DNA from: Mobula hypostoma
Taxonomy: Eukaryota
Reading direction: 5' to 3'
Length of the DNA stretch: 64,000 bases
Assembly (NCBI RefSeq): GCF_963921235.1
Contig: NC_086097.1
Span: 150,476,001 to 150,540,000, forward strand
Shown: piece after piece, positions 1 to 33,515 of the stretch
Layout of the letters: each line of letters begins with the position of its first letter
How positions within the stretch are numbered: position 1 is the stretch's first letter
Notes under the pieces: generated by a model
The model's database searches: none
Told to the model about the DNA's origin: nothing
The model's input: only the letters and a program-made list of their open reading frames with translations
Program-made: the position numbers and the translations under genes

Positions 1-59
1 TTGTACCTTCTCTCTACCATCCTTTGCCTTCTTCAATTGGACAAACCAAACCAGGGCCC

Positions 60-990
60 TATGAAAATGCTATGTATCAGCATATAGGAGAGCGACCGAA
101 AATCTGGCTGAGTGGTGCCACAACAACCTCTCACTCAATGTCAGCTCAACCAAGAGCTGAATATTGACTTCAGGAGGAGGAAATCTGAGGTCCATGAGTC
201 AGTCCTCATCAGGGTACCAAAGGTGGAGAGGATCAGCAACTTTAAATTCCCCAGTGTTATCATTTCAGAGGAACTTTCCTGGGCCCAGTACGTAAATGCA
301 ATTATGAAGTACCTCTACTTCCTTAGAAGTTTGTGAAGATTCGCATGCCAGCTAATACTTCAACAAACTTCTATAGATGTGTGGTAGACAGTATATTGAC
401 TGGCTGCATCATCCCCTGATATGGAAGCACCAATGCCTTTGAACAGAAAATCCTACAAAAAGTAGTGGATTTGACCCAATCCATCATAGATAAAGCCCTC
501 CCCTCCACTGTGCACATCTACAAGAAACGTTGTCACAGGAAAGTAGCATTCATCATCAGGGACCCCAGCACCCAGGTCATGCTCTCTTCTTGCGCTGTCA
601 TTAGGAAGACGGTGCAGGAGTCTCAAGACTCACACTACCAGGTTCAGGAATGGTTATTATCCCTCAACCTTTGGACTGTTGAACCAGTGGGGATAAATTC
701 ACTTGTTGCATCACTTAACTATTCCCATGAACCTATGGACTCACTTTCAAAGACTCTTCATCTCATGTTCTCAATACTTAATGTCTATTTATTTATTTAT
801 TTATTTATTATTTTTACTTTCTCTTTTGCCTTTGCACAGTTTGTTGTCTTTTGCACACTGGTTGTTTGACTGCCCTCTTGGGTGTGGTCCTTCATGATAC
901 TTGGATTTACTGAGTATGCCCACAAGAAAACAAATCTCAGGTTTGTATATGGTGACGCATATGTACTTCGATAATAAATTTACTTTAAAT
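60..990 (+). mobile_element. Decayed Rex1/Babar-like LINE 3' fragment (mirror at about 27615-28545, minus)
   Basis: ELNIDFRR...VERISNFKF.SVIISEELSW...LYFLRSL motif; tail gataataaatttacttt. Bounds approximate. Confidence 0.7.
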
Positions 991-1029
991 ATTTAATTTT
1001 TAAACATGCCCACTGCACATTTTCCAAGT

Positions 1030-2700
1030 ATATCCTTTCCCAATTAATGCTCCTAAATTCCTGCCCAATCGCATCATAATTCACCCTCCCCCCCAATTAA
1101 TTAGTTTTCTATATTGTCTCCCAAATGTCACACACTACGAGATCCATTCCTTGATTTCATTCATTGTTTTGTACTCAATCCACTAGTACTCGCTTCTCAG
1201 TCGACCTGTCTGCGTAATGTGTCAGGACTTCTTCCTGGACATACCTAATAAATTCTGCCGCCCTAAAACTTCTGCAGTAAGGAGGTGCCAAACAATACTA
1301 GGTAAGTCCAAGTTACCCATAACAATAACCCTGGTATTTCTGCACTTTCCGGAAATTTGTTACTACTCGGGATTCTATAGAACACTCCCAAAAGTGTGTG
1401 TTCCCTTCTTGTTTCTGACTTCCATCCACATCCACTCAGTAGATGATGCCTCCACAACGTTCTCCCTTTCTGTAGTTGTGATACTACTACTGATTTGCAA
1501 TGCCACTCCGCTACCCCTGTCATTTTGAAATATCTAGAGCCAGAGGCATCCAGCAGCCATCCTCCCCTTGTGACAGCCAGAATGGCCAGAATGTTGTAGT
1601 TCCATGTACTGATCCATGCTCTAAGTTCATCATCTTGTTCCTGAGACTTCTTGCATTAAAATAAGACACATTTCAACCCATCCAACTGAGTGCAAATATG
1701 CTCTCCCCACTGCCTATCCGTCCCCACAGACTCTCTACATGTGTCTACATGTTGCATCTACCTGTACACCGTCTACTCCATCCTCCAACCTATCAGTCCA
1801 GTTCCTAACCCAGGTCAACCTACTTTAAAACCTGCCCAACAACTCTAGCAAACCTGCCTACAAGGATATTGGTTCCCTTCAAGTTGAGGTGTAACCCATC
1901 CTTTTTGTACAGGTCATACTTTCCCCAGAAGAGCCCCAATGATCCACAAATCTTAAACGCTGCCCCGCTGCACCAATTCTTCATCTGCCATATCATCCTA
2001 TTCTTACCCTCACTGGTGCTTGGCACAGGCATCGCCCTTGAGATGCCACACCTGAGGCACGCATTTTAGCGTCCTACCTAACCCCTATATTCACACTTCA
2101 GGACCTCATCTCTTTTCCTACCTATGTCGTTGGTATCACAATTTCTGGCTGCTCATCTCTGCTCTTCAGAATGCTGTGGTCCTGATCCAAGATGTCCCTG
2201 ATGCTAGCACCTGACATGCAATATATCATCATGTGGAGTATTTTTCATTTCCAAAGAATCTCCTGTCTGTACCCTAACAACTGAATCTCCCAACATCATC
2301 ACTCTCCTCTTCTTGCCCTCTTCCCATCTGAACTGTAGTTGCTGCAGCTTTCCCTGGTAGGTTGTCCCCCGGACCAGTATCCAAGGTGGTACTACTTGTG
2401 ATTGAGGAAAATGGCCACAGGAGTTCTCTGCACTGTCTGCCTATTCCCTTTCCCTCTCCTGACAGTCACCCAGCTACCTGTCTCCTGCAATGCAAGTGTA
2501 ACTGCCTCCCTGTAGCTCCTATCTCTCAACTGATTATTCTCCCAAATGAGGCACGGGTCACCCAGCTCCAGTTCTCTAACATGATCTGTAGGGAGTTGCA
2601 CCCAGATGCAGTTCTTGCAGCTGTAGCAATCAAAAAGACTGGAGGTTGCCCAAATCTCCCAGAAGAGGAGCACACCACTGCCCTGGGATCCATTCTCACA
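1030..2700 (-). mobile_element. Decayed CR1 5' part (ORF1 esterase plus endonuclease remnants; mirror at about 25900-27575, plus)
   Basis: DLYKKDGLHLNLKGTNILVGRFAR (GDSL esterase end), WVTVRRGKG, TLLGVFYR. Bounds approximate. Confidence 0.7.
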
Positions 2701-3554
2701 ACTCAAGTTAGGCACTGATAAAGAGAGAAACAGAAAACTGACAAACCTCAACCAAGCCTCCACCTCTCTTGCCAAAGCACCTTGAGCCAAAACCTCAGTT
2801 CCCACTCTAACTCTGTCCTCTCTCTCACACTACCAGGTGCTAGTGTCAAGCCTCACACAAAAACCTCTCCTTTTTATTGGTTTAACCTCTTTTTATTGGC
2901 CCTTGACAAGTGCCTAATAACCCAAGGGATGTTAGACTCTGCAGAAAGTCCTGACAGGTCCACTTGCTTTTTAAATCTGATGTTACTAATCACAAGTTAC
3001 ATATGAATAAAAGCCAATCCACAGAAACAGGATATTCAACCAGTGTCAACAAGACATGGAAGACAACCAGTATGGATAGAAGTACAAAATCTGGCCAGGG
3101 ATTCTTGAATGCCAGGAAGGAAGATTTGTGTTGCAACTTTATAAAATTCTGGTTAGGCCACATCTGGAGTATTGCATACCATGCTGGTTGTCCCGCTATA
3201 GGAAGGGTGTTGAGTGTTGAGGCTTTGGAGAGGGTGAAGAACAGGTTCACCAGGATGCCGCCTGGTTTCGAGGGCATGTGCTATCATGAGAGGCTGGATA
3301 AACTTGGGGTGTTTTCTTTGGCATGTCGGAGGTGGAGGGGAGACCTAATAGGTTTATGAGAGGCATAGATAGAGTGGACAGAGAGTATCTGTTTCCCAGG
3401 GATGAAATGTCCAATAATAGAGGGCATTAATGTAGGCTCAAGTCGGGTGCAAGGGGTAAGTTTTTTCTTGGAAAGCCGTGGATGATTGGAATGTGCTGCC
3501 TGGTATGGTGGCAGAGGCAAATACATTAGAGGCTTTTAGGAGATGTTTAGATAG

Positions 3555-4415
3555 TGTTACGAGAATACACATAAAATTAAGATGTTTGCTGGCCTGGGCT
3601 AGCATCAGTGGCATCAGCAGTTGGTCTGCCACCTGCCCTCAGGGGAAGGAGAGATAAGGAACAATGGAGCAGCGTCTGGAGATGTGTAATGAAGGGATGT
3701 GGGAGGAAGAGCTGTCTGGAGCGGCTCCCCCCTTTGAACCCTGAACTGTTTGAAGTGATGGACAGGCGATACCCCAGCAGGGGGATAAAAAGGGACAGGT
3801 TCGCTAAGACAGACACACACACGCCACCCGAGGTAACGAGACCCTGGAAGCGGTGCGCCTCTCACGAGTGGGTGAGAAGTGCCAGACAACGACAAGGGTG
3901 GAAAGGTACGATCAGCGGGAACCCGGTGTGTGTCCGCCCTTGCCTGGGTGCCGGGTTCACTGCAGAGGATCGACCGCATCTGGAGGAGGGGTCACAGTCG
4001 GTGACCTCAGGTGACATCACCAAGGACCCGCCCAAATGCTGTTTGTGAGCCATCCCGCTGGTCTGTGAGTGAAGCCGTTCTGAATGATCAGTTGTTCCTA
4101 TTCTATGTCTCTCTTCCCCCACCTTGTCCATCGCCATGGCCACGATTACTGCGAACTGAACTACTAACTGGACTGAACTTTGAGTCATTTTGAAATTGGT
4201 CATTTACCCCTAGACAACGATAGAGCTTGATTGATGCTGTTATCTTAATTCTGTGCACATGTGCGTTTATCATCGCTGAACTGTTGCATTTATTATCCTT
4301 TCGATTAATGTGTTGCTTGTTTCTTTAATAAAACTTTCTTAGTTCTAGTACTCCAGACTCCAACTGAGTGATCCATTTCTGCTGGTTTGGCAACCCAGTT
4401 ACGGGGTACGTAACA
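3555..4415 (+). repeat. LTR 1 (861 bp)
   Basis: TG...CA with 7-bp terminal inverted repeat; GATAAAA TATA-like motif near 3784; AATAAA at 4327-4332. Confidence 0.95.
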
Positions 4416-4419
4416 TAAG

Positions 4420-4445
4420 TGGGGTTCTCGTCCGCGATTTTGAAC
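4420..4445 (+). promoter_or_regulatory. Primer binding site, tRNA-Pro-like (second copy at 8540-8565)
   Basis: TGGGGTTCTCGTCCGCGATTTTGAAC, 4 nt after the LTR, resembles the complement of the tRNA-Pro 3' end (TGGGGGCTCGTCCGGGATTTGAAC) with a few mismatches/indels. Confidence 0.75.
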
Positions 4446-4514: not shown

Positions 4515-7502
4515 ATGGAGGTTGAGGAATTTATAAAGGCGCCGACCTTGGAGGCATTAGAGGATGCCAGGAAATCGGAATTGATAGCTGTGGCCAAACG
4601 GGTGAATCTTGCTAAGGTGAAGTCGACAATGAGGAGAGAGGAGATACACAGAGCTATTGTAGAGCACTATGTATCTAAAGGTGTGTTTCCCCAAGGTGAG
4701 CTGGGGGTGGTGTCTATTGAAAAACCTGCTGGAGACGCGGTACAGGTACAGCTTGAAAAACTGAGACTCGAGCACGAGTTCCGGGTACGGCAGTTAGAAC
4801 ACGAAGAGAAGCAGTTAGAAAGGCAGGAGAAAGAGAGAGAGTTAGAAAGGCAGGAGAAAGAGAGAGAGTTAGAAAGGCAGGAGAAAGAGAGAGAGTTAGA
4901 AAGGCGGGAGAAAGAGAGAGAGTTAGAAAGGCGGGAGAGAGAGAGAGAGTTAGAAAGGCGGGAGAGAGAGAAAGAGGTAGAAAGGCAAGAGAGAGAAAGA
5001 CAGTTGGAGAGAGAAGAGAGAGAGAGGGACAGACAGTTGGAGAGAGAGGAGAAACAGAGGGAAAGGGAATTTGAGCTGGAGAAGTTAAAGATAAGGGCCG
5101 AGCAGGGGCTCGTGCCGAACCAAGGTGGAGGGTTCCGGGCGACCCAGGAGGTTAGGCTGGTTCCCCCATTTGACGATACCGATGTGGATCGGTACTTTCT
5201 CCACTTCGAAAAGGTGGCTATAAGTCAGGAATGGCCGAGGGATAAGTGGGTTGTCTTACTTCAGAGTGTACTGAAAGGGAAGGCCCAACAAGCTTACTCC
5301 GCTTTATCCGCGGAAGATGCCCAGAAGTATGAGGTGGTGAAGGAGGCCATCCTCAGGATTTATGAGTTGGTCCCGGAGGCATACCGGCAGAGGTTCCGGA
5401 ATGCGAGGAAGCGGTGGGACCGCACGTATTTGGAGTTTGCTCGCGAGATGCAAACATATTGTGAGCGTTGGTGCGCCTCGAAGGGGGTAGAGGGGGATTA
5501 TGACAGACTGCTGCAGCTGATTCTGATTGAGCAGTTTAAAGGTTGTGTCCCTGAGGGTATGAGACCCTACCTCGATGAGAAAGAGGCAGCCACGTTAGCC
5601 GCAACTGCTAAGTTAGCGGATGAGTATGCGTTGACGCATAAAATGAAGTTTGCCTCGAGTAAAGGCTACCAGAAGGGTAGTCAGGACGGCGGGGAGAATC
5701 CACCGGAAAAGTCAGAAAGTAAGCCGGGGACTAGTGAAAAGGATAAGGTAGACCGGGAGCAGTCTGGTAGGAAGTCTCCTGGGGTCGTCTGTTATAATTG
5801 TGGGAAAGTCGGACACTTTGCGTCCAGGTGCTTTGCCCCAAGGAAGGAGACGGGGAAAGGAAAAGCGGAAATTTTGAATGGCTGTATCGAGCTGTTAAGC
5901 GAACCGCTAGGGAAGGACAGGTCTGAAAAAGTCCAGGAAGGGCGCGAGAGGTTTATCTCGGCCGGACTGGTGTCAGTGAAAAAGAGGTTAAAACCAGTTC
6001 CAGTGCGGATCTGGAGAGACACGGGAGCGTGTCAATCATTGATATTGAAGAGTGTATTAGAGTTTAGCTCAGAGACCCAGACTGGGGAGGTAGAGGTCAA
6101 AGGTGTTGGGGAAGGGACAGAGTCAGTCCCTTTGCACCAGATACATTTACAGAGCAACCTGGTCTCTGGACTAGTCACGATCGGGGTGAGGTCCGAATTA
6201 CCGATGAAAGACGTGGAAGTCTTGCTCGGTAATGATATCGCCGGAGGAATCGTGTTCCCAGTCGTGAGATTGACGGGTCAGCCTGCCAGCATGGAGGCCC
6301 CGCCCGCGATGGTGAATTTGGCTGAAACATTCCTGCCAACCTTGTATGAGACAGGGTGTAGTGAGATAAGAGGTAGTGAGGGAGCTGGGACGGACGTAGC
6401 AGTAGCCAGGAAAGAATTTGTGCAGACGCAGGAGCGAGACGAGGGGCTGATGGTTTTTGCCGAGACCGCTCTCTCTGACACAGCCTTGACAAGGGAACTA
6501 GTAGGCTATTGTGCGGATGAGGAAGTGCTAAGGAAGAAAGGGAAATCAAGGACAGTATCCGCAGATGAGGAGTGGGGGGTGGTGCAAAAGAGTTATGGGG
6601 ATGAGGTTTTTAACATGGCCCACGAGGTACCCCCCGGTGGACATTTTGCGGTGCTGGAGGAAACAGTTGGTGGAATCATGAAAGAGATTTACCGGCTGCC
6701 CAGGGGGAAAAATGTTATTGATCATGACCGACGCGAACTGAGACGGTCACCGGCTTTTGATATGCTAACAAACCTGGTCGGTGTTAGCGTGGAAATCAAT
6801 GAAGCTAGGGGCCCCCTGCTAAGAGGAAAAAACCATTTTGAAAAGATTAGGATGGGATCGGTCAGATGGGAGAAGGCTATTGTTTTGGCCAGGTCTACTG
6901 ATAAGGTCTCTCCCTTAATCCCCGAAGGAGTAATTAAACGACTCGCACCCATGTGTTTGATTGTCCCGAGGAAATGCAAAGAACTGGGACGTTGGGTGAT
7001 TGTGGTTACAATAGGGCAGCCAAGTAAACAACACCCATATTTTTCGAGTAATTCAGTGACTAAAGGGCTGATGAACACAGAGGTGTGTATTGGCAATTTA
7101 ACACGGCTGTCTGAAGCCAGCTTGATAGTGAACCTTGAAAAAAATGAATTCGGCCACACGAAGGTCACTTACCTGGGAATTGTGGTGACACAGGGGCAGC
7201 TGGCAGTGATGCAAGCTACAGTGCAGGCTATCGCTGACCTCCCAACCCCGACAGACAAGAGGGCCCTCAGAAGGCTCTTGGAGATGGTGGGGTACTGCAG
7301 GAAGTTTTGCAATAACTCTGCGGTCAATACCCGTCCCCCTCCTACTAAGCCCTTGCGAGAGAAAACTGAGTCGGAATGGGACGACCCTTGTTGTTGTGGT
7401 CCGGGACAAAACCAAATGAGAGGTTACATTGGTCGCAATTCATCAGTGTTTTTGGCCACTCTGAAGTTTGCTGAGTTGGAGCCTGGTCTAAGGGATTATT
7501 AA
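4515..7502 (+). CDS. 995-aa Gag(SCAN-like, CCHC)-protease polyprotein with in-frame remnants of integrase and RT, copy 1
   Basis: E/R-rich helix; YELVPEAYRQRFR...LEQF-type SCAN-like capsid; CYNCGKVGHFASRC knuckle near 5790; RDTGA protease at 6018; AHEVPPGGH integrase zinc-finger remnant; LEKNEF..VTYLG..LRRLLEMVGYCRKF RT thumb remnant. Confidence 0.9.
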   Translation: MEVEEFIKAPTLEALEDARKSELIAVAKRVNLAKVKSTMRREEIHRAIVEHYVSKGVFPQGELGVVSIEKPAGDAVQVQLEKLRLEHEFRVRQLEHEEKQLERQEKERELERQEKERELERQEKERELERREKERELERRERERELERREREKEVERQERERQLEREERERDRQLEREEKQREREFELEKLKIRAEQGLVPNQGGGFRATQEVRLVPPFDDTDVDRYFLHFEKVAISQEWPRDKWVVLLQSVLKGKAQQAYSALSAEDAQKYEVVKEAILRIYELVPEAYRQRFRNARKRWDRTYLEFAREMQTYCERWCASKGVEGDYDRLLQLILIEQFKGCVPEGMRPYLDEKEAATLAATAKLADEYALTHKMKFASSKGYQKGSQDGGENPPEKSESKPGTSEKDKVDREQSGRKSPGVVCYNCGKVGHFASRCFAPRKETGKGKAEILNGCIELLSEPLGKDRSEKVQEGRERFISAGLVSVKKRLKPVPVRIWRDTGACQSLILKSVLEFSSETQTGEVEVKGVGEGTESVPLHQIHLQSNLVSGLVTIGVRSELPMKDVEVLLGNDIAGGIVFPVVRLTGQPASMEAPPAMVNLAETFLPTLYETGCSEIRGSEGAGTDVAVARKEFVQTQERDEGLMVFAETALSDTALTRELVGYCADEEVLRKKGKSRTVSADEEWGVVQKSYGDEVFNMAHEVPPGGHFAVLEETVGGIMKEIYRLPRGKNVIDHDRRELRRSPAFDMLTNLVGVSVEINEARGPLLRGKNHFEKIRMGSVRWEKAIVLARSTDKVSPLIPEGVIKRLAPMCLIVPRKCKELGRWVIVVTIGQPSKQHPYFSSNSVTKGLMNTEVCIGNLTRLSEASLIVNLEKNEFGHTKVTYLGIVVTQGQLAVMQATVQAIADLPTPTDKRALRRLLEMVGYCRKFCNNSAVNTRPPPTKPLREKTESEWDDPCCCGPGQNQMRGYIGRNSSVFLATLKFAELEPGLRDY
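4812..5000 (+). repeat. 27-bp coding minisatellite, about 7 units (ELERQEKER); second copy at 8932-9120
   Basis: Tandem units of gagttagaaaggcaggagaaagagaga. Confidence 0.9.
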
Positions 7503-7662
7503 TAACACGTGTAAAAGGAACAGAAAATGTGATGACTGTCTGTCAAGGTGTTGACAGCTTCAAATTCTCTGTATTAGCTAAATAACTGTTAAAGATGTAT
7601 ATTGTGTATGTATCAGATAATGTAGTCATGTTTGTAATTTTTACCTCCCGGTAAAAATCCTT

Positions 7663-7674
7663 AAAGGGGGGAAG
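7663..7674 (+). promoter_or_regulatory. Polypurine tract (second copy at 11783-11794)
   Basis: AAAGGGGGGAAG directly abutting the LTR's TG. Confidence 0.85.
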
Positions 7675-8535
7675 TGTTACGAGAATACACATAAAATTAA
7701 GATGTTTGCTGGCCTGGGCTAGCATCAGTGGCATCAGCAGTTGGTCTGCCACCTGCCCTCAGGGGAAGGAGAGATAAGGAACAATGGAGCAGCGTCTGGA
7801 GATGTGTAATGAAGGGATGTGGGAGGAAGAGCTGTCTGGAGCGGCTCCCCCCTTTGAACCCTGAACTGTTTGAAGTGATGGACAGGCGATACCCCAGCAG
7901 GGGGATAAAAAGGGACAGGTTCGCTAAGACAGACACACACACGCCACCCGAGGTAACGAGACCCTGGAAGCGGTGCGCCTCTCACGAGTGGGTGAGAAGT
8001 GCCAGACAACGACAAGGGTGGAAAGGTACGATCAGCGGGAACCCGGTGTGTGTCCGCCCTTGCCTGGGTGCCGGGTTCACTGCAGAGGATCGACCGCATC
8101 TGGAGGAGGGGTCACAGTCGGTGACCTCAGGTGACATCACCAAGGACCCGCCCAAATGCTGTTTGTGAGCCATCCCGCTGGTCTGTGAGTGAAGCCGTTC
8201 TGAATGATCAGTTGTTCCTATTCTATGTCTCTCTTCCCCCACCTTGTCCATCGCCATGGCCACGATTACTGCGAACTGAACTACTAACTGGACTGAACTT
8301 TGAGTCATTTTGAAATTGGTCATTTACCCCTAGACAACGATAGAGCTTGATTGATGCTGTTATCTTAATTCTGTGCACATGTGCGTTTATCATCGCTGAA
8401 CTGTTGCATTTATTATCCTTTCGATTAATGTGTTGCTTGTTTCTTTAATAAAACTTTCTTAGTTCTAGTACTCCAGACTCCAACTGAGTGATCCATTTCT
8501 GCTGGTTTGGCAACCCAGTTACGGGGTACGTAACA
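7675..8535 (+). repeat. LTR 2 (shared middle LTR)
   Basis: Appears identical to LTR 1; preceded by a PPT and followed by a PBS. Confidence 0.95.
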
Positions 8536-8634: not shown

Positions 8635-11622
8635 ATGGAGGTTGAGGAATTTATAAAGGCGCCGACCTTGGAGGCATTAGAGGATGCCAGGAAATCGGAA
8701 TTGATAGCTGTGGCCAAACGGGTGAATCTTGCTAAGGTGAAGTCGACAATGAGGAGAGAGGAGATACACAGAGCTATTGTAGAGCACTATGTATCTAAAG
8801 GTGTGTTTCCCCAAGGTGAGCTGGGGGTGGTGTCTATTGAAAAACCTGCTGGAGACGCGGTACAGGTACAGCTTGAAAAACTGAGACTCGAGCACGAGTT
8901 CCGGGTACGGCAGTTAGAACACGAAGAGAAGCAGTTAGAAAGGCAGGAGAAAGAGAGAGAGTTAGAAAGGCAGGAGAAAGAGAGAGAGTTAGAAAGGCAG
9001 GAGAAAGAGAGAGAGTTAGAAAGGCGGGAGAAAGAGAGAGAGTTAGAAAGGCGGGAGAGAGAGAGAGAGTTAGAAAGGCGGGAGAGAGAGAAAGAGGTAG
9101 AAAGGCAAGAGAGAGAAAGACAGTTGGAGAGAGAAGAGAGAGAGAGGGACAGACAGTTGGAGAGAGAGGAGAAACAGAGGGAAAGGGAATTTGAGCTGGA
9201 GAAGTTAAAGATAAGGGCCGAGCAGGGGCTCGTGCCGAACCAAGGTGGAGGGTTCCGGGCGACCCAGGAGGTTAGGCTGGTTCCCCCATTTGACGATACC
9301 GATGTGGATCGGTACTTTCTCCACTTCGAAAAGGTGGCTATAAGTCAGGAATGGCCGAGGGATAAGTGGGTTGTCTTACTTCAGAGTGTACTGAAAGGGA
9401 AGGCCCAACAAGCTTACTTCGCTTTATCCGCGGAAGATGCCCAGAAGTATGAGGTGGTGAAGGAGGCCATCCTCAGGATTTATGAGTTGGTCCCGGAGGC
9501 ATACCGGCAGAGGTTCCGGAATGCGAGGAAGCGGTGGGACCGCACGTATTTGGAGTTTGCTCGCGAGATGCAAACATATTGTGAGCGTTGGTGCGCCTCG
9601 AAGGGGGTAGAGGGGGATTATGACAGACTGCTGCAGCTGATTCTGATTGAGCAGTTTAAAGGTTGTGTCCCTGAGGGTATGAGACCCTACCTCGATGAGA
9701 AAGAGGCAGCCACGTTAGCCGCAACTGCTAAGTTAGCGGATGAGTATGCGTTGACGCATAAAATGAAGTTTGCCTCGAGTAAAGGCTACCAGAAGGGTAG
9801 TCAGGACGGCGGGGAGAGTCCACCGGAAAAGTCAGAAAGTAAGCCGGGGACTAGTGAAAAGGATAAGGTAGACCGGGAGCAGTCTGGTAGGAAGTCTCCT
9901 GGGGTCGTCTGTTATAATTGTGGGAAAGTCGGACACTTTGCGTCCAGGTGCTTTGCCCCAAGGAAGGAGACGGGGAAAGGAAAAGCGGAAATTTTGAATG
10001 GCTGTATCGAGCTGTTAAGCGAACCGCTAGGGAAGGACAGGTCTGAAAAAGTCCAGGAAGGGCGCGAGAGGTTTATCTCGGCCGGACTGGTGTCAGTGAA
10101 AAAGAGGTTAAAACCAGTTCCAGTGCGGATCTGGAGAGACACGGGAGCGTGTCAATCATTGATATTGAAGAGTGTATTAGAGTTTAGCTCAGAGACCCAG
10201 ACTGGGGAGGTAGAGGTCAAAGGTGTTGGGGAAGGGACAGAGTCAGTCCCTTTGCACCAGATACATTTACAGAGCAACCTGGTCTCTGGACTAGTCACGA
10301 TCGGGGTGAGGTCCGAATTACCGATGAAAGACGTGGAAGTCTTGCTCGGTAATGATATCGCCGGAGGAATCGTGTTCCCAGTCGTGAGATTGACGGGTCA
10401 GCCTGCCAGCATGGAGGCCCCGCCCGCGATGGTGAATTTGGCTGAAACATTCCTGCCAACCTTGTATGAGACAGGGTGTAGTGAGATAAGAGGTAGTGAG
10501 GGAGCTGGGACGGACGTAGCAGTAGCCAGGAAAGAATTTGTGCAGACGCAGGAGCGAGACGAGGGGCTGATGGTTTTTGCCGAGACCGCTCTCTCTGACA
10601 CAGCCTTGACAAGGGAACTAGTAGGCTATTGTGCGGATGAGGAAGTGCTAAGGAAGAAAGGGAAATCAAGGACAGTATCCGCAGATGAGGAGTGGGGGGT
10701 GGTGCAAAAGAGTTATGGGGATGAGGTTTTTAACATGGCCCACGAGGTACCCCCCGGTGGACATTTTGCGGTGCTGGAGGAAACAGTTGGTGGAATCATG
10801 AAAGAGATTTACCGGCTGCCCAGGGGGAAAAATGTTATTGATCATGACCGACGCGAACTGAGACGGTCACCGGCTTTTGATATGCTAACAAACCTGGTCG
10901 GTGTTAGCGTGGAAATCAATGAAGCTAGGGGCCCCCTGCTAAGAGGAAAAAACCATTTTGAAAAGATTAGGATGGGATCGGTCAGATGGGAGAAGGCTAT
11001 TGTTTTGGCCAGGTCTACTGATAAGGTCTCTCCCTTAATCCCCGAAGGAGTAATTAAACGACTCGCACCCATGTGTTTGATTGTCCCGAGGAAATGCAAA
11101 GAACTGGGACGTTGGGTGATTGTGGTTACAATAGGGCAGCCAAGTAAACAACACCCATATTTTTCGAGTAATTCAGTGACTAAAGGGCTGATAAACACAG
11201 AGGTGTGTATTGGCAATTTAACACGGCTGTCTGAAGCCAGCTTGATAGTGAACCTTGAAAAAAATGAATTCGGCCACACGAAGGTCACTTACCTGGGAAT
11301 TGTGGTGACACAGGGGCAGCTGGCAGTGATGCAAGCTACAGTGCAGGCTATCGCTGACCTCCCAACCCCGACAGACAAGAGGGCCCTCAGAAGGCTCTTG
11401 GAGATGGTGGGGTACTGCAGGAAGTTTTGCAATAACTCTGCGGTCAATACCCGTCCCCCTCCTACTAAGCCCTTGCGAGAGAAAACTGAGTCGGAATGGG
11501 ACGACCCTTGTTGTTGTGGTCCGGGACAAAACCAAATGAGAGGTTACATTGGTCGCAATTCATCAGTGTTTTTGGCCACTCTGAAGTTTGCTGAGTTGGA
11601 GCCTGGTCTAAGGGATTATTAA
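8635..11622 (+). CDS. 995-aa Gag-protease-degenerate pol polyprotein, copy 2
   Basis: Same as copy 1 except S>F (9419), N>S (9818) and M>I (11193). Confidence 0.9.
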   Translation: MEVEEFIKAPTLEALEDARKSELIAVAKRVNLAKVKSTMRREEIHRAIVEHYVSKGVFPQGELGVVSIEKPAGDAVQVQLEKLRLEHEFRVRQLEHEEKQLERQEKERELERQEKERELERQEKERELERREKERELERRERERELERREREKEVERQERERQLEREERERDRQLEREEKQREREFELEKLKIRAEQGLVPNQGGGFRATQEVRLVPPFDDTDVDRYFLHFEKVAISQEWPRDKWVVLLQSVLKGKAQQAYFALSAEDAQKYEVVKEAILRIYELVPEAYRQRFRNARKRWDRTYLEFAREMQTYCERWCASKGVEGDYDRLLQLILIEQFKGCVPEGMRPYLDEKEAATLAATAKLADEYALTHKMKFASSKGYQKGSQDGGESPPEKSESKPGTSEKDKVDREQSGRKSPGVVCYNCGKVGHFASRCFAPRKETGKGKAEILNGCIELLSEPLGKDRSEKVQEGRERFISAGLVSVKKRLKPVPVRIWRDTGACQSLILKSVLEFSSETQTGEVEVKGVGEGTESVPLHQIHLQSNLVSGLVTIGVRSELPMKDVEVLLGNDIAGGIVFPVVRLTGQPASMEAPPAMVNLAETFLPTLYETGCSEIRGSEGAGTDVAVARKEFVQTQERDEGLMVFAETALSDTALTRELVGYCADEEVLRKKGKSRTVSADEEWGVVQKSYGDEVFNMAHEVPPGGHFAVLEETVGGIMKEIYRLPRGKNVIDHDRRELRRSPAFDMLTNLVGVSVEINEARGPLLRGKNHFEKIRMGSVRWEKAIVLARSTDKVSPLIPEGVIKRLAPMCLIVPRKCKELGRWVIVVTIGQPSKQHPYFSSNSVTKGLINTEVCIGNLTRLSEASLIVNLEKNEFGHTKVTYLGIVVTQGQLAVMQATVQAIADLPTPTDKRALRRLLEMVGYCRKFCNNSAVNTRPPPTKPLREKTESEWDDPCCCGPGQNQMRGYIGRNSSVFLATLKFAELEPGLRDY

Positions 11623-11794: not shown

Positions 11795-12655
11795 TGTTAC
11801 GAGAATACACATAAAATTAAGATGTTTGCTGGCCTGGGCTAGCATCAGTGGCATCAGCAGTTGGTCTGCCACCTGCCCTCAGGGGAAGGAGAGATAAGGA
11901 ACAATGGAGCAGCGTCTGGAGATGTGTAATGAAGGGATGTGGGAGGAAGAGCTGTCTGGAGCGGCTCCCCCCTTTGAACCCTGAACTGTTTGAAGTGATG
12001 GACAGGCGATACCCCAGCAGGGGGATAAAAAGGGACAGGTTCGCTAAGACAGACACACACACGCCACCCGAGGTAACGAGACCCTGGAAGCGGTGCGCCT
12101 CTCACGAGTGGGTGAGAAGTGCCAGACAACGACAAGGGTGGAAAGGTACGATCAGCGGGAACCCGGTGTGTGTCCGCCCTTGCCTGGGTGCCGGGTTCAC
12201 TGCAGAGGATCGACCGCATCTGGAGGAGGGGTCACAGTCGGTGACCTCAGGTGACATCACCAAGGACCCGCCCAAATGCTGTTTGTGAGCCATCCCGCTG
12301 GTCTGTGAGTGAAGCCGTTCTGAATGATCAGTTGTTCCTATTCTATGTCTCTCTTCCCCCACCTTGTCCATCGCCATGGCCACGATTACTGCGAACTGAA
12401 CTACTAACTGGACTGAACTTTGAGTCATTTTGAAATTGGTCATTTACCCCTAGACAACGATAGAGCTTGATTGATGCTGTTATCTTAATTCTGTGCACAT
12501 GTGTGTTTATCATCACTGAACTGTTGCATTTATTATCCTTTCGATTACTGTGTTGCTTGCTTCTTTAATAAAACTTTCTTAGTTCTAGTACTCCAGACTC
12601 CAACTGAGTGATCTATTTCTGCTGGTTTGGCAACCCAGTTACGGGGTACGTAACA
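11795..12655 (+). repeat. LTR 3
   Basis: Same as LTR 1/2 except 5 substitutions clustered at 12504-12614; followed by TSD ATAG. Confidence 0.95.
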
Positions 12656-13026
12656 ATAGGCACATGGATGTAAGGAAGATGGAGGGATATGGACATGGTG
12701 TAGGTAGGAGGGATTAGTGTTTGGGTGTTTCTGATTTTTGTTTTCAGTTGGTTTGGCACAGCACTGTGGGCCAAATGGCTTGTTGCTGTGCTGTGATCTT
12801 ATGTTCTGTGTAAAAGCGAGCAAGTGGCATGCTGAAACAAAATCATGAAATGCCAAAGAAAAACTGCTTGGGTCAGGCTGCATTTGTGCAAAGAGAAATA
12901 GAGTTAACATTTCAGGTCAAAGAACCTTCACTGATGATGTCGCATGGAAAATTAAATCACAACGTAAAAATATTACAGTGATTAATGTTTCTTTAAGCAA
13001 CATGCAGTATTTCAAACTCCAGATAC

Positions 13027-13165
13027 CTTGTTGCGCCACACTCTCCTGAGCGAGCACACCAGTCCCAGCATTGACATATTCATCATTGGGGTGTTTCTTG
13101 TGGTAATGTCTCTTCAGTGACCCAGCCATGTTACAGGAGTAGTGGCAGAGAGCACATCGGAAAGG
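13027..13165 (-). CDS. ZFAT: ZFAT coding exon 'C' (native copy): PFRCALCHYSCNMAGSLKRHYHKKHPNDEYVNAGTGVLAQESVAQQ(G)
   Basis: ttcag acceptor, gtatct donor; 139 nt, phase 0/1, in frame with exon B; matches recalled ZFAT PFRCAHCHYSCNISGSLKRHYNRKHPNEEY. Confidence 0.92.
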
Positions 13166-13452
13166 CTGAAGTAAATAAGGAAAACGTTACCAGTAAAATC
13201 TACTCCAGCAGCAAATAGAAGCAACAGTTACACCAGACCACTGAGATCACATAATTATTTGTATCAACAATTGGTAAAATAACAACAGAATTGATATTAG
13301 CAGAACACCAACAGTAAAGGAAGCAGGAAGGACTAGCTCAACAACAGATAACACCTACATGAACAACTGAAACAATTAAACATCTTTTAATAACATGAAA
13401 GGGCGGCAATTTTTGTATCAATGGCAGGGACAGGTACAACACCTGCATTTTC

Positions 13453-15790
13453 AATAGACAATAGACAATAGGTGCAGAAGTAGACCATTCGGCCCTTCGA
13501 GCCTGCACCCCCATTCTGAGATCATGGCTGATCATCTACTATCAATACCCGGTTCCTGCCTTGTCCCCATAACCCCTGATTCCCCTATCCATAAGATACC
13601 TATCTAGCTCCTTCTTGAAAGCATCCAGAGAATGGCCTCCACTGCCTTCTGAGGCAGCGCGTTCCACACCTCCACAACTCTCTGGGAGAAGAAGTTCCTC
13701 CTCAACTCTGTCCTAAATGACCTACCCCTTATTCTTAAACCATGCCCTCTGGTACTGGACTGTCCCAGCATCTGGAACATATTTCCTGCCTCTATCTTGT
13801 CCAATCCCTCAATAATCTTGTATGTCTCAATCAGATCCCCCCTCAATCTCCTTAATTCCAGCATGTACAAGCCCAGTCTCTCTAACCTCTCTGCGTAAGA
13901 CAGTCCGGACATCCCAGGAATTAACCTAGTGAAGCTACGCTGCACCTCCTCCACAGCCAGGATGTCCTTCCTTAACCCTGGAGATCAAAACTGCACACAA
14001 TACTCCAGGTGTGGTCTCACCAGGGCCCTGTACAAATGCAAAAGGATTTCCTTGCTCTTGTACTCCATTCCCTTTGTAATAAAGGCCAACATTCCATTAG
14101 CCTTCTTCACTGCCTGCTGCACTTGCTCATTCACCTTCACAAACTGATGAACAAGTACTCCTAGATCTCTTTGTATTTCTCTCTTACCTAACTCCACACC
14201 ATTCAGATAATCTGCCTTCCTGTTCTTGCTCCCAAAGTATAACCTCACACTTATTCACATTAAACGCCATCTGCCAAGTTTCTGCCCACTCACCCAGCCT
14301 ATCCAAGTCACCTTGAATTCTCCTAACATCCTCATTACATGTCACACTGCCACCCAGCTTTGTATCATCAGCAAACTTGCTGATGTTATTCACAATGCCT
14401 TCCTCTAAATCATTGATGTAAATCGTAAACAGCTGTAGTCCCAATACCGAGCCCTGTGGCACCCCACTAGTCACCACTTGCCATTCCGAGAAACACCCAT
14501 TCACTGCTACCCTTTGCTTTCTATCTGCCAACCAGTTGTCTATCCATGTCAATATCCTCCTCGCAATGCCATGAGCTCTGATTTTACCCACCAATCTCCT
14601 ATGTGGTACCTTATCAAGTGCCTTCTGAAAGTCAAGGTACACCACATCCACTGGATCTCCCGTGTCCATCTTCCTGGTTACATCCTCAAAAAACTCCAAT
14701 AGATTAGTCATGTATGATTTGCCCTTGGTAAATCCATGCTGGCTCGGCCCAATCTTATCACTGCTATCAAGATATGCCGCTATTTCATCTTTAATAATGG
14801 ACTCTAGCATCTTCCCCACTCCTGATGTTAGGCTAACACGGCGATAGTTCTCTGTTTTCTCCCTCCCTCCTTTCTTAAAAAGTGGGATAACATTAGCCAT
14901 TCGCTAATCCTCAGGAACTGATCCTGAATCTAAGGAACAGTGGAAAATGATTACCAATGCATCCACAATTTCCAGAGCCACCTCCTTTAGTACCCTAGGA
15001 TGCAGACCATCTGGACCTGGGGATTTGTTAGCCTTCAGTCCCATTAGTCTACTCATCACTGTTTCCTTCCTAATGTTAATCTGTTTCAGTTCCTCTGTTA
15101 CCCTATGTCCTTGGCCCATCCATACATCTGGGAGATTGCTTGTGTCTTCCCTAGTGAAGACAGATCCAAAGTACTTATTAAATTCGTCTGCCATTTCGCT
15201 GTTTCCCATAACAATTTCTCCCAATTCATTCTTCAAGGGCCCAACATTGTTCTTAACTATCCTCCTTCTCTTTACATACCTAAAAAATCTTTTGCTATCC
15301 TCCTTTATATTCCTAGCTAGCTTGCATTCATACCTCATTTTTTCTCCCCGTATTGCCTTTTTAGTTAAGTGCTGTTGCTCCTTAAAAATTTCCCAATCAT
15401 CCATCTTACCATTCACCTTAGCTCTGTTATACTTCTTTTTTAATGCTATGCTATCTCTGACTTCCTTTGTCAACCACTGTGGCCACTTTCTCCCCTTTGA
15501 ATCCTTCCTTCTCTGGGGGATGAACTGATTTTGCACCTTGTGCATTATTCCCAAGAATACCTGCCATTGCTGTTCCACTGTCCTTTCTGCTAGGATATCC
15601 GACCAGTCAACTTTGGCCAGCTCCTCCCTCATGGCTCCATAGTCTCCTTTGTTCAACTGTAATACTGACACTTCTGATCTGCCTTTATCCCTCTCAACTT
15701 GCAGATAAAAACTTATCATATCATGGTCAGTACCTCCTAATGGCTCCTTTACTTTAAGATCACTTATCAAATCCTATTCATTGCACAAAT
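13453..15790 (-). mobile_element. CR1 LINE, 5'-truncated ORF2 plus 3' tail
   Basis: ORFs 14904-15770, 14184-14900, 13985-14248 and 13604-13954 with KSPGPDGLHP, YLDFQKA.DKVPH, SGVPQGSVLG, KFADDTKL; (CTATTGT)n tail. Confidence 0.92.
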
Positions 15791-23522: not shown

Positions 23523-26500
23523 GTAAGGGAGAAATACAAAGAGATCTAGCAGTACTTGTTCATCAGTTTGTGAAGGTGAATGAGCAAGTGCAGCAGGCAG
23601 TGAAGAAGGCTAACGAAATGTTGGCCTTTATTACAAAGGGAATGGAGTACAAGAGCAAGGAAATCCTTTTGCATTTGTACAGGGCCCTGGTGAGACCACA
23701 CCTGGAGTATTGTGTGCAGTTTTGATCTCCAGGGTTAAGGAAGGACATCCTGGCTGTGGAGGAGGTGCAGCGTAGCTTCACTAGGTTAATTCCTGGGATG
23801 TCCGGACTGTCTTACGCAGAGAGGTTAGAGAGACTGGGCTTGTACATGCTGGAATTAAGGAGATTGAGGGGGGATCTGATTGAGACATACAAGATTATTT
23901 AGGGATTGGACAAGATAGAGGCAGGAAATATGTTCCAGATGCTGGGACAGTCCAGTACCAGAGGGCATGGTTTAAGAATAAGGGGTAGGTCATTTAGGAC
24001 AGAGTTGAGGAGGAACTTCTTCTCCCAGAGAGTTGTGGAGGTGTGGAACGCGCTGCCTCAGAAGGCAGTGGAGGCCATTCTCTGGATGCTTTCAAGAAGG
24101 AGCTAGATAGGTATCTTATGGATAGGGGAATCAGGGGTTATGGGGACAAGGCAGGAACCGGGTATTGATAGTAAATGATCAGCCATGATCTCAGAATGGG
24201 GGTGCAGGCTCGAAGGGCCGAATGGTCTACTTCTGCACCTATTGTCTATTGTCTATTGAAAATGCAGGTGTTGTACCTGTCCCTGCCATTGATACAAAAA
24301 TTGCCGCCCTTTCATGTTATTAAAAGATGTTTAATTGTTTCAGTTGTTCATGTAGGTGTTATCTGTTGTTGAGCTAGTCCTTCCTGCTTCCTTTACTGTT
24401 GGTGTTCTGCTAATATCAATTCTGTTGTTATTTTACCAATTGTTGATACAAATAATTATGTGATCTCAGTGGTCTGGTGTAACTGTTGCTTCTATTTGCT
24501 GCTGGAGTAGATTTTACTGGTAACGTTTTCCTTATTTACTTCAGCCTTTCCGATGTGCTCTCTGCCACTACTCCTGTAACATGGCTGGGTCACTGAAGAG
24601 ACATTACCACAAGAAACACCCCAATGATGAATATGTCAATGCTGGGACTGGTGTGCTCGCTCAGGAGAGTGTGGCGCAACAAGGTATCTGGAGTTTGAAA
24701 TACTGCATGTTGCTTAAAGAAACATTAATCACTGTAATATTTTTACGTTGTGATTTAATTTTCCATGCGACATCATCAGTGAAGGTTCTTTGACCTGAAA
24801 TGTTAACTCTATTTCTCTTTGCACAAATGCAGCCTGACCCAAGCAGTTTTTCTTTGGCATTTCATGATTTTGTTTCAGCATGCCACTTGCTCGCTTTTAC
24901 ACAGAACATAAGATCACAGCACAGCAACAAGCCATTTGGCCCACAGTGCTGTGCCAAACCAACTGAAAACAAAAATCAGAAACACCCAAACACTAATCCC
25001 TCCTACCTACACCATGTCCATATCCCTCCATCTTCCTTACATCCATGTGCCTATCTAAACATCTCCTAAAAGCCTCTAATGTATTTGCCTCTGCCACCAT
25101 ACCAGGCAGCACATTCCAATCATCCACGGCTTTCCAAGAAAAAACTTACCCCTCGCACCCGACTTGAGCCTACATTAATGCCCTCTATTATTGGACATTT
25201 CATCCCTGGGAAACAGATACTCTCTGTCCACTCTATCTATGCCTCTCATAAACCTATTAGGTCTCCCCTCCACCTCCGACATGCCAAAGAAAACACCCCA
25301 AGTTTATCCAGCCTCTCATGATAGCACATGCCCTCGAAACCAGGCGGCATCCTGGTGAACCTGTTCTTCACCCTCTCCAAAGCCTCAACACTCAACACCC
25401 TTCCTATAGCGGGACAACCAGCATGGTATGCAATACTCCAGATGTGGCCTAACCAGAATTTTATAAAGTTGCAACACAAATCTTCCTTCCTGGCATTCAA
25501 GAATCCCTGGCCAGATTTTGTACTTCTATCCATACTGGTTGTCTTCCATGTCTTGTTGACACTGGTTGAATATCCTGTTTCTGTGGATTGGCTTTTATTC
25601 ATATGTAACTTGTGATTAGTAACATCAGATTTAAAAAGCAAGTGGACCTGTCAGGACTTTCTGCAGAGTCTAACATCCCTTGGGTTATTAGGCACTTGTC
25701 AAGGGCCAATAAAAAGAGGTTAAACCAATAAAAAGGAGAGGTTTTTGTGTGAGGCTTGACACTAGCACCTGGTAGTGTGAGAGAGAGGACAGAGTTAGAG
25801 TGGGAACTGAGGTTTTGGCTCAAGGTGCTTTGGCAAGAGAGGTGGAGGCTTGGTTGAGGTTTGTCAGTTTTCTGTTTCTCTCTTTATCAGTGCCTAACTT
25901 GAGTTGTGAGAATGGATCCCAGGGCAGTGGTGTGCTCCTCTTCTGGGAGATTTGGGCAACCTCCAGTCTTTTTGATTGCTACAGCTGCAAGAACTGCATC
26001 TGGGTGCAACTCCCTACAGATCATGTTAGAGAACTGGAGCTGGGTGACCCGTGCCTCATTTGGGAGAATAATCAGTTGAGAGATAGGAGCTACAGGGAGG
26101 CAGTTACACTTGCATTGCAGGAGACAGGTAGCTGGGTGACTGTCAGGAGAGGGAAAGGGAATAGGCAGACAGTGCAGAGAACTCCTGTGGCCATTTTCCT
26201 CAATCACAAGTAGTACCACCTTGGATACTGGTCCGGGGGACAACCTACCAGGGAAAGCTGCAGCAACTACAGTTCAGATGGGAAGAGGGCAAGAAGAGGA
26301 GAGTGATGATGTTGGGAGATTCAGTTGTTAGGGTACAGACAGGAGATTCTTTGGAAATGAAAAATACTCCACATGATGATATATTGCATGTCAGGTGCTA
26401 GCATCAGGGACATCTTGGATCAGGACCACAGCATTCTGAAGAGCAGAGATGAGCAGCCAGAAATTGTGATACCAACGACATAGGTAGGAAAAGAGATGAG

Positions 26501-28604: not shown

Positions 28605-29607
28605 CGGTTGACAAGAGATGTAGAACATGTAGTCAAGAGGAAGAAAAAAATATACTTAAGGTTTAAAATATTAATTTCCAGATAGCAATTTCTCCCAGTT
28701 CTTTGTTCTGTTTCCTCCCTCAATCAACAATGTCAAGAACATTTATTTCATTGTTGCTGAAGGCAAGTTGTATTTACAGTCCAAAAGTAATTCACTTTCT
28801 TGGAACTCTTTTTTAGTGTGTCTTATAAGTTTAAAGAACACAGTATCGATTCTTCGGCCCACAATGCTGTGCCAACCTTTTAACCTACTCCAAGATCAAG
28901 GTAACCCCTCTCTCACTCCCACATAGCACTCCATTTCTCTGTTATTCATGTACCTATCCAAGAATCTCTTAAGTGTCCCAACCACCAGCCATGGCAGTGT
29001 GTTCCATGAACTTAGCACTCTTTGTGTTTTAAAAAAAACTCCCTCAAACATAGCCCCATTCACCTTAAAATTATCCCCTTTCATATTAACACAACACACA
29101 CAAAATGCTGGAGGAACTCAGCAGGCCTGGCAGCATCTATAGAAAAGAGTACAGTTGACGTTTCAGGCTAAGACCCTTCAACAGGACTCTTTCATATTAG
29201 CCAGTTCTACCATGGGAAAAGGTGCTGGATCTCCACTCTACCTAGGCCTCTTATCATCTGATACATGTGACAGAAATAAACCAAGTTGCCAATTTTCATG
29301 TTTTTTCAACTTACTAATCATACCTGTCACCCTCAATGCATATAATAAACAGCAATACTGTTCCTGGTTCTGAACGTTCCCACGATGTTTCTGATGATTG
29401 TTCATTAGCCTGAAATAGCAACATTTCCTCTTTATTTTGCACACTTTCAGAATGTTTTAGTCTGAAATTTTAAAATTTTTCATTTGGCTTCACCCCTATC
29501 TCTGTATTTTGTGTAATTTTACAGTTTTACTGTTGAATATGTTACCTTTCCACATATCAGCAGCTTTAACTCTGAGAAGTTTGCATTCCAGTTAGAGAAA
29601 GCTGACT

Positions 29608-32600: not shown

Positions 32601-33515
32601 AGGGAAAATTTAAAAATTTATTTCTTGTATGTATAATTTGATTCAAGAACAGACAATTAAACAAGGAACCCATAAGTCAAAGCAAAAATGGGAAACAGAT
32701 CTGAATATTATTATTGATGAAACAAATTGGTCAAGACTTTGTCTTGACAGTATGACAAATACAATAAATGTTCGACTTAGATTAGTACAATATAATTTTT
32801 TACATCAATTATATATTACACCGCAAAAAGTAAATAGATTAAATTCAAATTTATCTGATAAATGTTTTCGGTGTAATCAAGAAATTGGTACTTTTTTACA
32901 TTCTACTTGGTCTTGTTTTAAAATTCAACCCTTTTGGATAAATTTAAGAATCTTATTGGAACAAATTACTGCAATCCAACTTCCACATAACCCTATATTA
33001 TTTTTGTTAGGTGATATTGAAGGGATAAAACCGAAACTTAAATTGAATAAATATCAGAAAGAATTTATAAAAATTGCATTGGCAGTAGCTAAGAAGACTA
33101 TAGCAGTTACTTGGAAATCTGATTCGTATTTAAGTATGGATCGTGGGAATAATGAAATGGCTAGTTCTATTCCACTCGAAAAAATTACTTATAATTTAAG
33201 AGATAAATATGTAACATTTTTGAATATTTGGCGCCCTTATTTACAAAAGATAGGATGGCATATTTAAGTGCTCTGATAAAGACTTTGGTCACTTGGGGAA
33301 AGTAACGAATAATTATACCAAATTCATTTTGAATCCCATGGAGCATGTGGAAACCTTCCAATAACCAGGCGGTTCTTTTCTTTTTTTTCTTTTTTTTTAA
33401 TTTTTCTTTCTTTTTAGGTAGGACTATATATGGGGGGGGGGGAGGGTAGATTCTTTTCTTTTTTTCATGTATTCTTTTTGAAAATTCAATAAAAATTATA
33501 TTCCCAAAAAAAAAA
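29608..33515. mobile_element. L1-clade LINE with 5' inversion (29608-31311 minus, 31312-33515 plus)
   Basis: APE endonuclease plus RT N-half on minus (NIYAPN, GGDFN, SDH); RT C-half (FADD) and Cys-rich domain on plus; poly(A) 33506-33515; TSD gaaagctgact at 29597-29607 and 33516-33526. Confidence 0.93.

Follow-up and report, generated by a model that had tools for sequence, protein, structure and literature searches.

Architecture of the locus

We analyzed a window of 64,000 nt from the genome of Mobula hypostoma (assembly GCF_963921235.1, contig NC_086097.1, positions 150,476,001 to 150,540,000 of the forward strand), in which a single 995-codon open reading frame (ORF) encodes Gag, a protease and the remains of a pol gene. 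A sequence-only reading of this stretch had described the ORF as part of one recently mobile, Gmr1-like retrotransposon. We found that the element belongs to a non-autonomous long terminal repeat (LTR) retrotransposon family, and comparison among its copies indicates that selection acts on the reading frame of the dead pol remnant, not on its amino acids.

The single frame is real, and most of the domains originally recognized in it were recovered. The SCAN-like capsid matches Pfam SCAN (PF02023) at residues 287–376 with an E-value of 1.4e-12 and 47.6 bits, above the cut-off, a zf-CCHC match accompanies it, and the DTG motif reported for the protease lies at 6018–6026. SCAN and zf-CCHC were the only Pfam matches in the ORF, residues 590–995 giving none at E ≤ 1; there is thus no rve, RVT_1 or RNase H match, and alignment to an intact relative shows the cores of these enzymes, including the DDE core of the integrase, to be deleted. 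The proposed integrase zinc-finger start, VFNMAHEVPPGGH at 6606–6644, is indeed a remnant of that domain, with both histidines kept but both cysteines lost. The EVCIGN motif at 7080–7097 had been read as a replacement of the YxDD catalytic site of reverse transcriptase (RT), and in the same alignment CIGN falls exactly on YIDD. The RT thumb, which matches Ty3 RT (4OL8, E 3e-5), is the best-kept piece of the remnant, with 58 of 77 residues identical. RNase H had been thought absent altogether; residues 963–984 are instead a scrap of this domain (73% DNA identity) that lacks the catalytic motif. Downstream of it lies the sole fixed frameshift, ~40 nt before the stop, so that the short shifted tail terminates ~50 nt ahead of the ancestral stop position (7552–7554). 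An AlphaFold model of residues 476–995, computed with no alignment input, had an uninformative pLDDT of 31. Six proteins matched with the remnant, all labelled Mobula hypostoma. One family protein of 966 residues bears the source name 'metastasis-associated in colon cancer protein 1 isoform X1', which probably reflects misannotation of an insertion in that gene.

The ORF does not lie in a single element, as had been assumed, but in a head-to-tail dimer, in which three LTRs spaced at 4,120 nt enclose two internal units (Table 1). LTR 1, which has a TATA-like box at ~3784 and AATAAA at 4327, is identical to LTR 2; LTR 3 differs from them at 5 sites clustered near its 3' end, 3 of which match a common haplotype, found in 35 of 120 family LTRs. 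The perfect target-site duplication (TSD) noted earlier, ATAG, is present, but it is duplicated solely outside the whole dimer and does not border a single unit. The homologous empty site, with one ATAG, was also correctly recognized. It belongs to the other arm of an inverted duplication of ~30 kb (window 1–3554 and 12656–14191 versus 23519–53830), with arms 99.5–99.97% identical, a 9.3-kb spacer and an extension reaching 25 kb upstream of the window. If this duplication is a real young palindrome, the insertion is younger still; alternatively, the two arms are haplotypes joined during assembly. Together, the low LTR divergence, the TSDs and the empty site support recent mobility.

The arrangement fits an unequal exchange between LTRs after the insertion of an already recombinant copy. 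The local dimer or the inverted duplication may be an assembly artefact, but 3 + 5 nt distinguish the units, and the family has tandem copies at other loci too, 3 of 60 sampled copies continuing into a second unit. Contig C64 carries an array of at least three consecutive non-autonomous units with shared LTRs at 52.99–53.01 Mb, and contig C80 carries tandem autonomous units, also sharing LTRs. Within the duplicated arm of the window lie two AT-rich repeats of ~4 kb (29577–33512 and 50097–53744), 90% alike and arranged partly in direct and partly in inverted orientation, possibly an old DNA transposon with long inverted ends.

Table 1. Features of the dimeric element in the window (dN/dS, ratio of nonsynonymous to synonymous substitution).
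Feature	Position	Strand	Remark
Left target-site duplication, ATAG	3551..3554	+	Single ATAG at empty site
LTR 1, 861 nt, TGT...ACA	3555..4415	+	Identical to LTR 2
Primer-binding site, tRNA-Pro site variant	4420..4438	+	
Single 995-codon ORF: Gag, protease, dead pol remnant	4515..7502	+	Full length in 29/60 sampled copies
Charged 27-nt tandem repeat, EKERELERQ units, copy-to-copy length variation	4800..5099	+	
Capsid (SCAN-like, 5373–5642) and CCHC knuckle (5790–5831)	5100..5843	+	98% DNA identity to young autonomous partner; dN/dS ~0.2
Aspartic protease region, DTG at 6018–6026, own lineage, purifying selection	5856..6305	+	
Spacer and integrase N-terminal remnant, ending at junction that removes catalytic core (net ~296 codons)	6306..6758	+	
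Integrase end, integrase-RT linker and RT N-terminus, ending at junction that removes ~128 RT codons	6759..7049	+	
RT palm scrap (CIGN at YIDD position, 7086–7097) and RT thumb (7104–7391)	7050..7391	+	
22-codon RNase H scrap and frame-shifted 11-codon tail	7401..7502	+	
Polypurine tract	7663..7674	+	
LTR 2, common to both tandem units; AATAAA at 8447	7675..8535	+	
Second tandem copy of the 995-codon ORF, 3 nt differences	8635..11622	+	
LTR 3, 5 differences from LTR 1/2	11795..12655	+	
Right target-site duplication, ATAG	12656..12659	+	
Empty target site	25051..25054	-	Other arm of ~30 kb inverted duplication

A non-autonomous family and its autonomous partner

An exact capsid 29-mer has 628 matches in the genome, and we sampled 60 young copies from the first 100 of these listed, leaving out the two copies in the window, one copy obtained previously and the last 37. 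All 60 have two LTRs, an interior of 3.0–3.4 kb and the same set of deletions; 54 are flanked by a 4-bp TSD, and their LTRs diverge by a median of 0.35%. A pattern specific to the remnant has 1,779 matches, so that the family comprises at least this many copies, and the proposal of a non-autonomous family supplying its own capsid and protease is borne out. The full frame is kept in 22 of 37 copies below 0.5% LTR divergence and in 7 of 23 above it (29/60 overall). Two older classes, with remnant identities of ~90% and ~84%, have these junctions and this C-terminus too, and remnant length shifts by <80 nt across the three age classes. The integrase junction is also spanned by a contig whose run carries the label of a second organism. 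Contigs of 4 of the 8 runs listed, which may or may not be RNA, cover all 30 bins and were counted neither for nor against any explanation. Hundreds of loci with distinct TSDs rule out an assembly artefact as the origin of the family, and host domestication was ruled out, the element being multicopy, young and TSD-flanked.

We searched for a partner with the integrase segment missing from the element as the query, scoring 150 matches and fetching 20. Several of the 20 loci are intact elements with LTRs 94–98% identical to those of the window, the same primer-binding site (PBS) variants and the same polypurine tract. Their ORFs are single, 1535–1564 residues long, with integrase before RT and all catalytic motifs, and the Pfam order is SCAN, CCHC, integrase, RT, RNase H. 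A partner-specific 24-mer, present in 7/7 young and 8/18 partner-type loci, occurs 58 times in the genome. Judging from the shared ends and the mosaic ancestry described below, the non-autonomous element likely borrows integrase, RT and RNase H from this partner.

Two other candidates were rejected. In a genome search with Pfam rve, the long frames read from the 30 loci taken belonged to a different gypsy family, in which RT precedes integrase and whose DNA is not similar to that of the element; this second, unrelated and abundant family, with copies 90–97% alike, dominates the integrase matches. A search for a longer homologue recovered only one unrelated fused protein, the real partners being shorter than the length bin searched.

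Among the 60 copies, the PBS is in the variant state in 37, canonical for tRNA-Pro in 18 and intermediate in 5. A genomic tRNA-Pro(AGG) gene has a 3' end complementary to the canonical site; among 12 loci scanned, 1 was a clean tRNA-Pro and 2 were called tRNA-Gln. These last two, which have a tRNA-Pro-type 3' end and lie at ~5.9-kb spacing on contig C90, are 89–90-nt tRNA-Gln(TTG) genes according to ARAGORN. All three PBS states are spread across the tree and are found in the partners as well, the imperfect variant being the most frequent; this may reflect tRNA-templated reversion or recombination.

The remnant is kept open without selection on its amino acids

Aligned with the partner, the remnant resolves up to residue 984 into 16 blocks, one of them a single codon, that all retain the ancestral frame. 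The 11 internal junctions that this alignment reveals in the remnant are all net multiples of three, for which the chance is 6e-6 under a rough one-in-three null. In a set of 116 copies, the remnant contains 51 private indels, 46 of which disrupt the frame, although private frameshifts may include assembly errors; of the nine indel groups present in at least 5 copies, eight are net in frame, one of them consisting, in the old class, of a +1 and a -1 separated by 10 nt. None of the classes has a fixed stop, although 4–16 would be expected from ~170–280 substitutions on the lineages and a stop fraction of 0.026–0.056 (P from 1e-2 to 2e-7).

We estimated dN/dS by the Nei-Gojobori method between real copies, with an assumed transition weight of 4, net of within-class diversity and with codon bootstraps. 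Between the 60 young and 25 old copies, dN/dS was 0.23 for the capsid and 0.26 for the protease, compared with 1.10 (0.78–1.62) for the remnant. For 329 remnant codons alignable to the partners, rough additive branch estimates, in which 25 of the 60 young copies were used, gave 1.27 (0.88–1.96) on the young and 1.49 (1.03–2.46) on the old element branch, and 0.20 and 0.29 on partner branches over the equivalent codons. The in-frame junctions, the lack of any fixed stop and the remnant dN/dS near 1 together indicate that selection acts on the frame and not on the amino acids it encodes.

The same ratios bear on a sequence-specific role of the remnant, which the sequence-only reading had raised as a decoy or tether: the integrase N-terminus or the RT thumb would bind partner enzymes or host restriction factors. 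The retained pieces are indeed interaction-prone domains, and the well-preserved thumb has a dN/dS of 0.51 on the young branch. The interval around this value nevertheless spans 1 (0.25–1.29), the older branch stands at 1.28, the remnant as a whole lies at 1.0–1.5, the cysteine ligands of the zinc finger are gone and a recurrent 2-nt deletion at 7192 cuts the thumb in 27 copies. We regard such a role as highly improbable.

A frame left open by luck in a few master copies, helped by the choice of an open-frame example and by recombinational repair, would require no selection on the remnant at all. Frameshifted variants do recur and may spread, the family recombines heavily and only 29 of the 60 young copies are fully open. 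But the uniformly in-frame junctions, the net in-frame state of the widely shared indels and the lack of fixed stops over so many substitutions are hard to reconcile with neutrality, and recombination would restore the frame durably only if open copies were favored, so that we consider this explanation distinctly unlikely. The earlier suggestion that the open frame is selected thus stands, but the constraint is quantitative rather than absolute: as that reading had named among possible contrary observations, single copies do gain stops once inserted, and two frameshifts are found repeatedly in a minority of copies.

Of 116 copies, 14 have a stop at 7017. Propagation from copy to copy, which this frequency had suggested, is improbable, the carriers being no closer to one another in the remnant than random copies (p 0.30 and 0.37) and sharing no private allele there, although old-class carriers are closer in the gag-protease part (p 0.019). 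It is a probable quasi-palindrome mutational hot spot. In mid-age and old copies, the equivalent of 7009–7022 is a quasi-palindrome in which TAG arises when the palindrome is perfected and a neighboring base is also often changed, which makes this site a likely template-switch mutation hot spot.

Mosaic ancestry

The window's element and the young partner are near-identical upstream of ~5840 and downstream of ~7535; between these points, identity is 83–86% in the protease and 57–86% in the remnant blocks. We compared ancestry across 41 sequences, with small partner classes (7, 3, 2 and 4 loci). Each of the three age classes is close to its contemporary partner in the 3' untranslated region (UTR) plus U3 (96/94/95% identity) and in the capsid (98/96/94%), where the net synonymous distance separating element from partner is ~0 for the young classes and 0.006 for the old ones. 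The integrase remnants of all three age classes, in contrast, form one clade (support 0.991) at 74–83% identity to any partner. That LTR and capsid match the partner of the same age while the remnant constitutes a separate lineage points to repeated exchange of these modules; the LTR, gag and 3' UTR were presumably replaced each time by template switching between co-packaged RNAs. The family model of the sequence-only reading was correct as to non-autonomy but missed this repeated exchange.

The constraint seen in the capsid may accordingly be inherited from the partner. The protease carries a 3-nt deletion of its own, shared by every young and mid-age copy and by 21 of 27 old ones but missing from young partners, and shows a dN/dS of 0.16–0.26 on the branch leading to the young class; this combination suggests that the protease likely works.

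How an open but meaningless frame could be favored

Selection on the frame without selection on amino acids implies that the act of translation matters. In our favored scenario, to which we give about an even chance, translation of the open junk frame to near the native stop would let the RNA escape nonsense-mediated decay (NMD), the presumed selective agent. The dimer is a tandem pair of copies from an abundant non-autonomous Gmr1-type family with conserved capsid and protease and dead integrase, RT and RNase H; its RNA would be co-packaged with partner RNA and Gag-Pol, its enzymes likely come from the partner and its LTR and gag are likely swapped with it, presumably when the polymerase switches template in the course of reverse transcription. 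With a stop directly behind the protease, the inferred 3' UTR would grow from ~0.95 kb to ~2.2 kb, whereas an open remnant would allow ribosomes to reach the vicinity of the native stop and spare the RNA from decay; copies with early stops would yield less RNA and fewer daughters, even as in-frame deletions go on shortening the remnant. Decay of retroviral RNA with a long 3' UTR, against which protection is needed, offers a precedent in the cited part of PMC2925335. More broadly, and somewhat more tentatively, we suggest that the 400-codon remnant has been under pure translatability selection through 20–25% divergence and three changes of partner, and that open junk frames may be a general design rule of parasitic LTR elements.

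Translation could also matter through cis licensing of the kind reported for mouse IAP 1Δ1, in which the RNA would have to be read through the whole fused frame for the element's own Gag-protease-junk polyprotein to escort it into a partner-built particle, and decay would not be the agent. This arrangement would leave the same signature of conserved frame but not sequence, and it could account for the retention of a selected Gag and protease that the partner could supply; the element, moreover, outnumbers the partner marker ~30-fold (a rough figure from different patterns), and the IAP 1Δ1 fusion acts in cis according to the cited passages of PMC6466679 and PMC7411935. Escort in cis, however, needs Gag alone and leaves the open codons past the protease unexplained, while truncating variants recur at 6813 and 7192, and we judge this alternative, the chief rival to escape from NMD, credible but unlikely.

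A third use of the tail, as sequence-indifferent protein bulk that, for example, delays protease dimerization or mimics the size of Gag-Pol in the capsid lattice, would likewise predict dN/dS near 1 with an open frame, and the stability of remnant length over the age classes is in line with it. Yet the tail is ~550 codons shorter than that of the partner and still shrinking, and 27 copies do without the last ~100 residues, leaving this explanation only a slim chance.

Several observations weigh against escape from NMD or, more generally, against selection on the frame. A -1 at ~6813, which would end the frame ~680 nt early, occurs in 8 of the 100 matches listed first out of 744 (9 of these 100 have an intact six-C run at this position) and in 10–11 of 29 mid-age copies fetched with a carrier as the query, among which only 10 are net in frame. 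Its carriers are no closer to each other than random, so that it reflects either a hot spot of slippage or a variant shuffled among copies after spreading. A -2 at 7192, which removes the last ~100 residues, is shared by 27 copies of several ages, set against the family total of 1,779; that it was ancestral to the young class was ruled out by this low overall count and by its presence in 2 of 29 mid-age copies, one of them the query. In favor of the scenario, the recurrent breaks observed lie in the 3' half. In the young class the -1 at 6813, the -2 at 7192 and the stop at 7017 are found in 0, 0 and 1 of 60 copies, respectively. The roughness of the junction null and of the additive branch estimates counts against it, as does the placement of the poly(A) site, which was inferred from AATAAA only. 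Vertebrate 3' UTRs of 2 kb are often tolerated. Finally, were 3' UTR length all that mattered, deletion of the remnant would serve equally well, yet the remnant persists.

Implications

When a mobile element has a long open frame, this is usually taken as evidence of a working protein; here, the frame is selected and the protein is not, and the two signals can be cleanly separated as the same codons in the helper provide the control. Should the cause lie in RNA surveillance or in packaging coupled to translation, the long-standing question of why a defective LTR element out-copies its helper becomes testable from natural variation alone, and the ~1,800 copies, with stops at many positions, would amount to a map of how far ribosomes must travel to escape surveillance or to obtain a packaging license. 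Our results also document in a vertebrate the tracking of a helper by LTR and gag exchange that was described from plants. Dating by LTR pairs and gene annotation can both be misled by such elements.

Comparison with known systems

The SCAN-like capsid and the protease-integrase-RT-RNase H order, intact in the partner and with collinear remnants in the window, agree with the Gmr1 identity proposed at the outset. Gmr1-like elements, abundant in fish, are described in the cited part of bioRxiv 10.1101/2025.03.03.638093 as having a SCAN-like capsid followed by protease, integrase and RT-RNase H, and the same order with a SCAN capsid is reported for frogs in that of PMC4131045. TG...CA LTRs, a tRNA primer site, a polypurine tract and a short TSD are all present at the window locus; the grounds for placing it among the Gmr1-like Ty3/gypsy elements are the order of its domains and the resemblance of its Gag-protease to unnamed SCAN-IN-RT polyproteins. 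The window's element differs from the elements described in that it is non-autonomous, with all three pol enzymes dead. Full-text literature searches, which did not extend to subscription journals, supplements or repeat databases, found no account of a Gmr1 family that is non-autonomous or of Gmr1 elements from elasmobranchs; nor did they show the present family, or measured selection on the frame alone in a dead pol, to have been reported.

In soybean, Du et al. reportedly described in 2010 pairs of autonomous and non-autonomous elements in which the non-autonomous lineage tracks its helper by LTR exchange. That is a plant system, whereas in the vertebrate family the LTR moves together with gag and the 3' UTR in all three age classes and the dead pol frame stays open.

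TR-GAG and other gag-only elements have a coding capacity of Gag with or without protease, a definition that does not cover the window's element, in which 400 further codons of pol remnant continue in frame. Gag-retaining non-autonomous LTR elements including TR-GAG (PMC13570524) and the zebrafish elements Bik-1 and Bik-2 (PMC12067270) resemble it in being mobile with an intact gag and no working pol and in the formation of tandem arrays by LTR recombination, and the cited passages of these papers and of PMC6894440 show that gag-bearing elements, tandem arrays and module exchange were already known. As described there, Bik elements encode no pol components, whereas the element studied here drags along a dead 400-codon pol frame fused to Gag-protease.

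For a frame that would protect RNA, a parallel is Rous sarcoma virus (RSV), in which a long 3' UTR after the gag stop exposes the RNA to NMD and a way round is needed, according to the cited part of PMC2925335. RSV uses a cis element after the stop; the window's element is proposed to hold the stop far downstream by means of an open junk frame.

There is also a likeness to mouse IAP 1Δ1, presented in the cited passages of PMC6466679 and PMC7411935 as a non-autonomous subfamily with an internal deletion, which transposes more than its helper does and encodes an in-frame gag-pol fusion acting in cis. The element in the window likewise has an in-frame gag-pol fusion after internal deletion. IAP 1Δ1, however, is described in these passages as retrovirus-derived and dependent on Gag in trans, part of its gag having been lost in a single 1.9-kb deletion, whereas here gag and the protease are whole and 11 junctions punctuate a remnant that has diverged from the partner by ~20–25% at a dN/dS of ~1.

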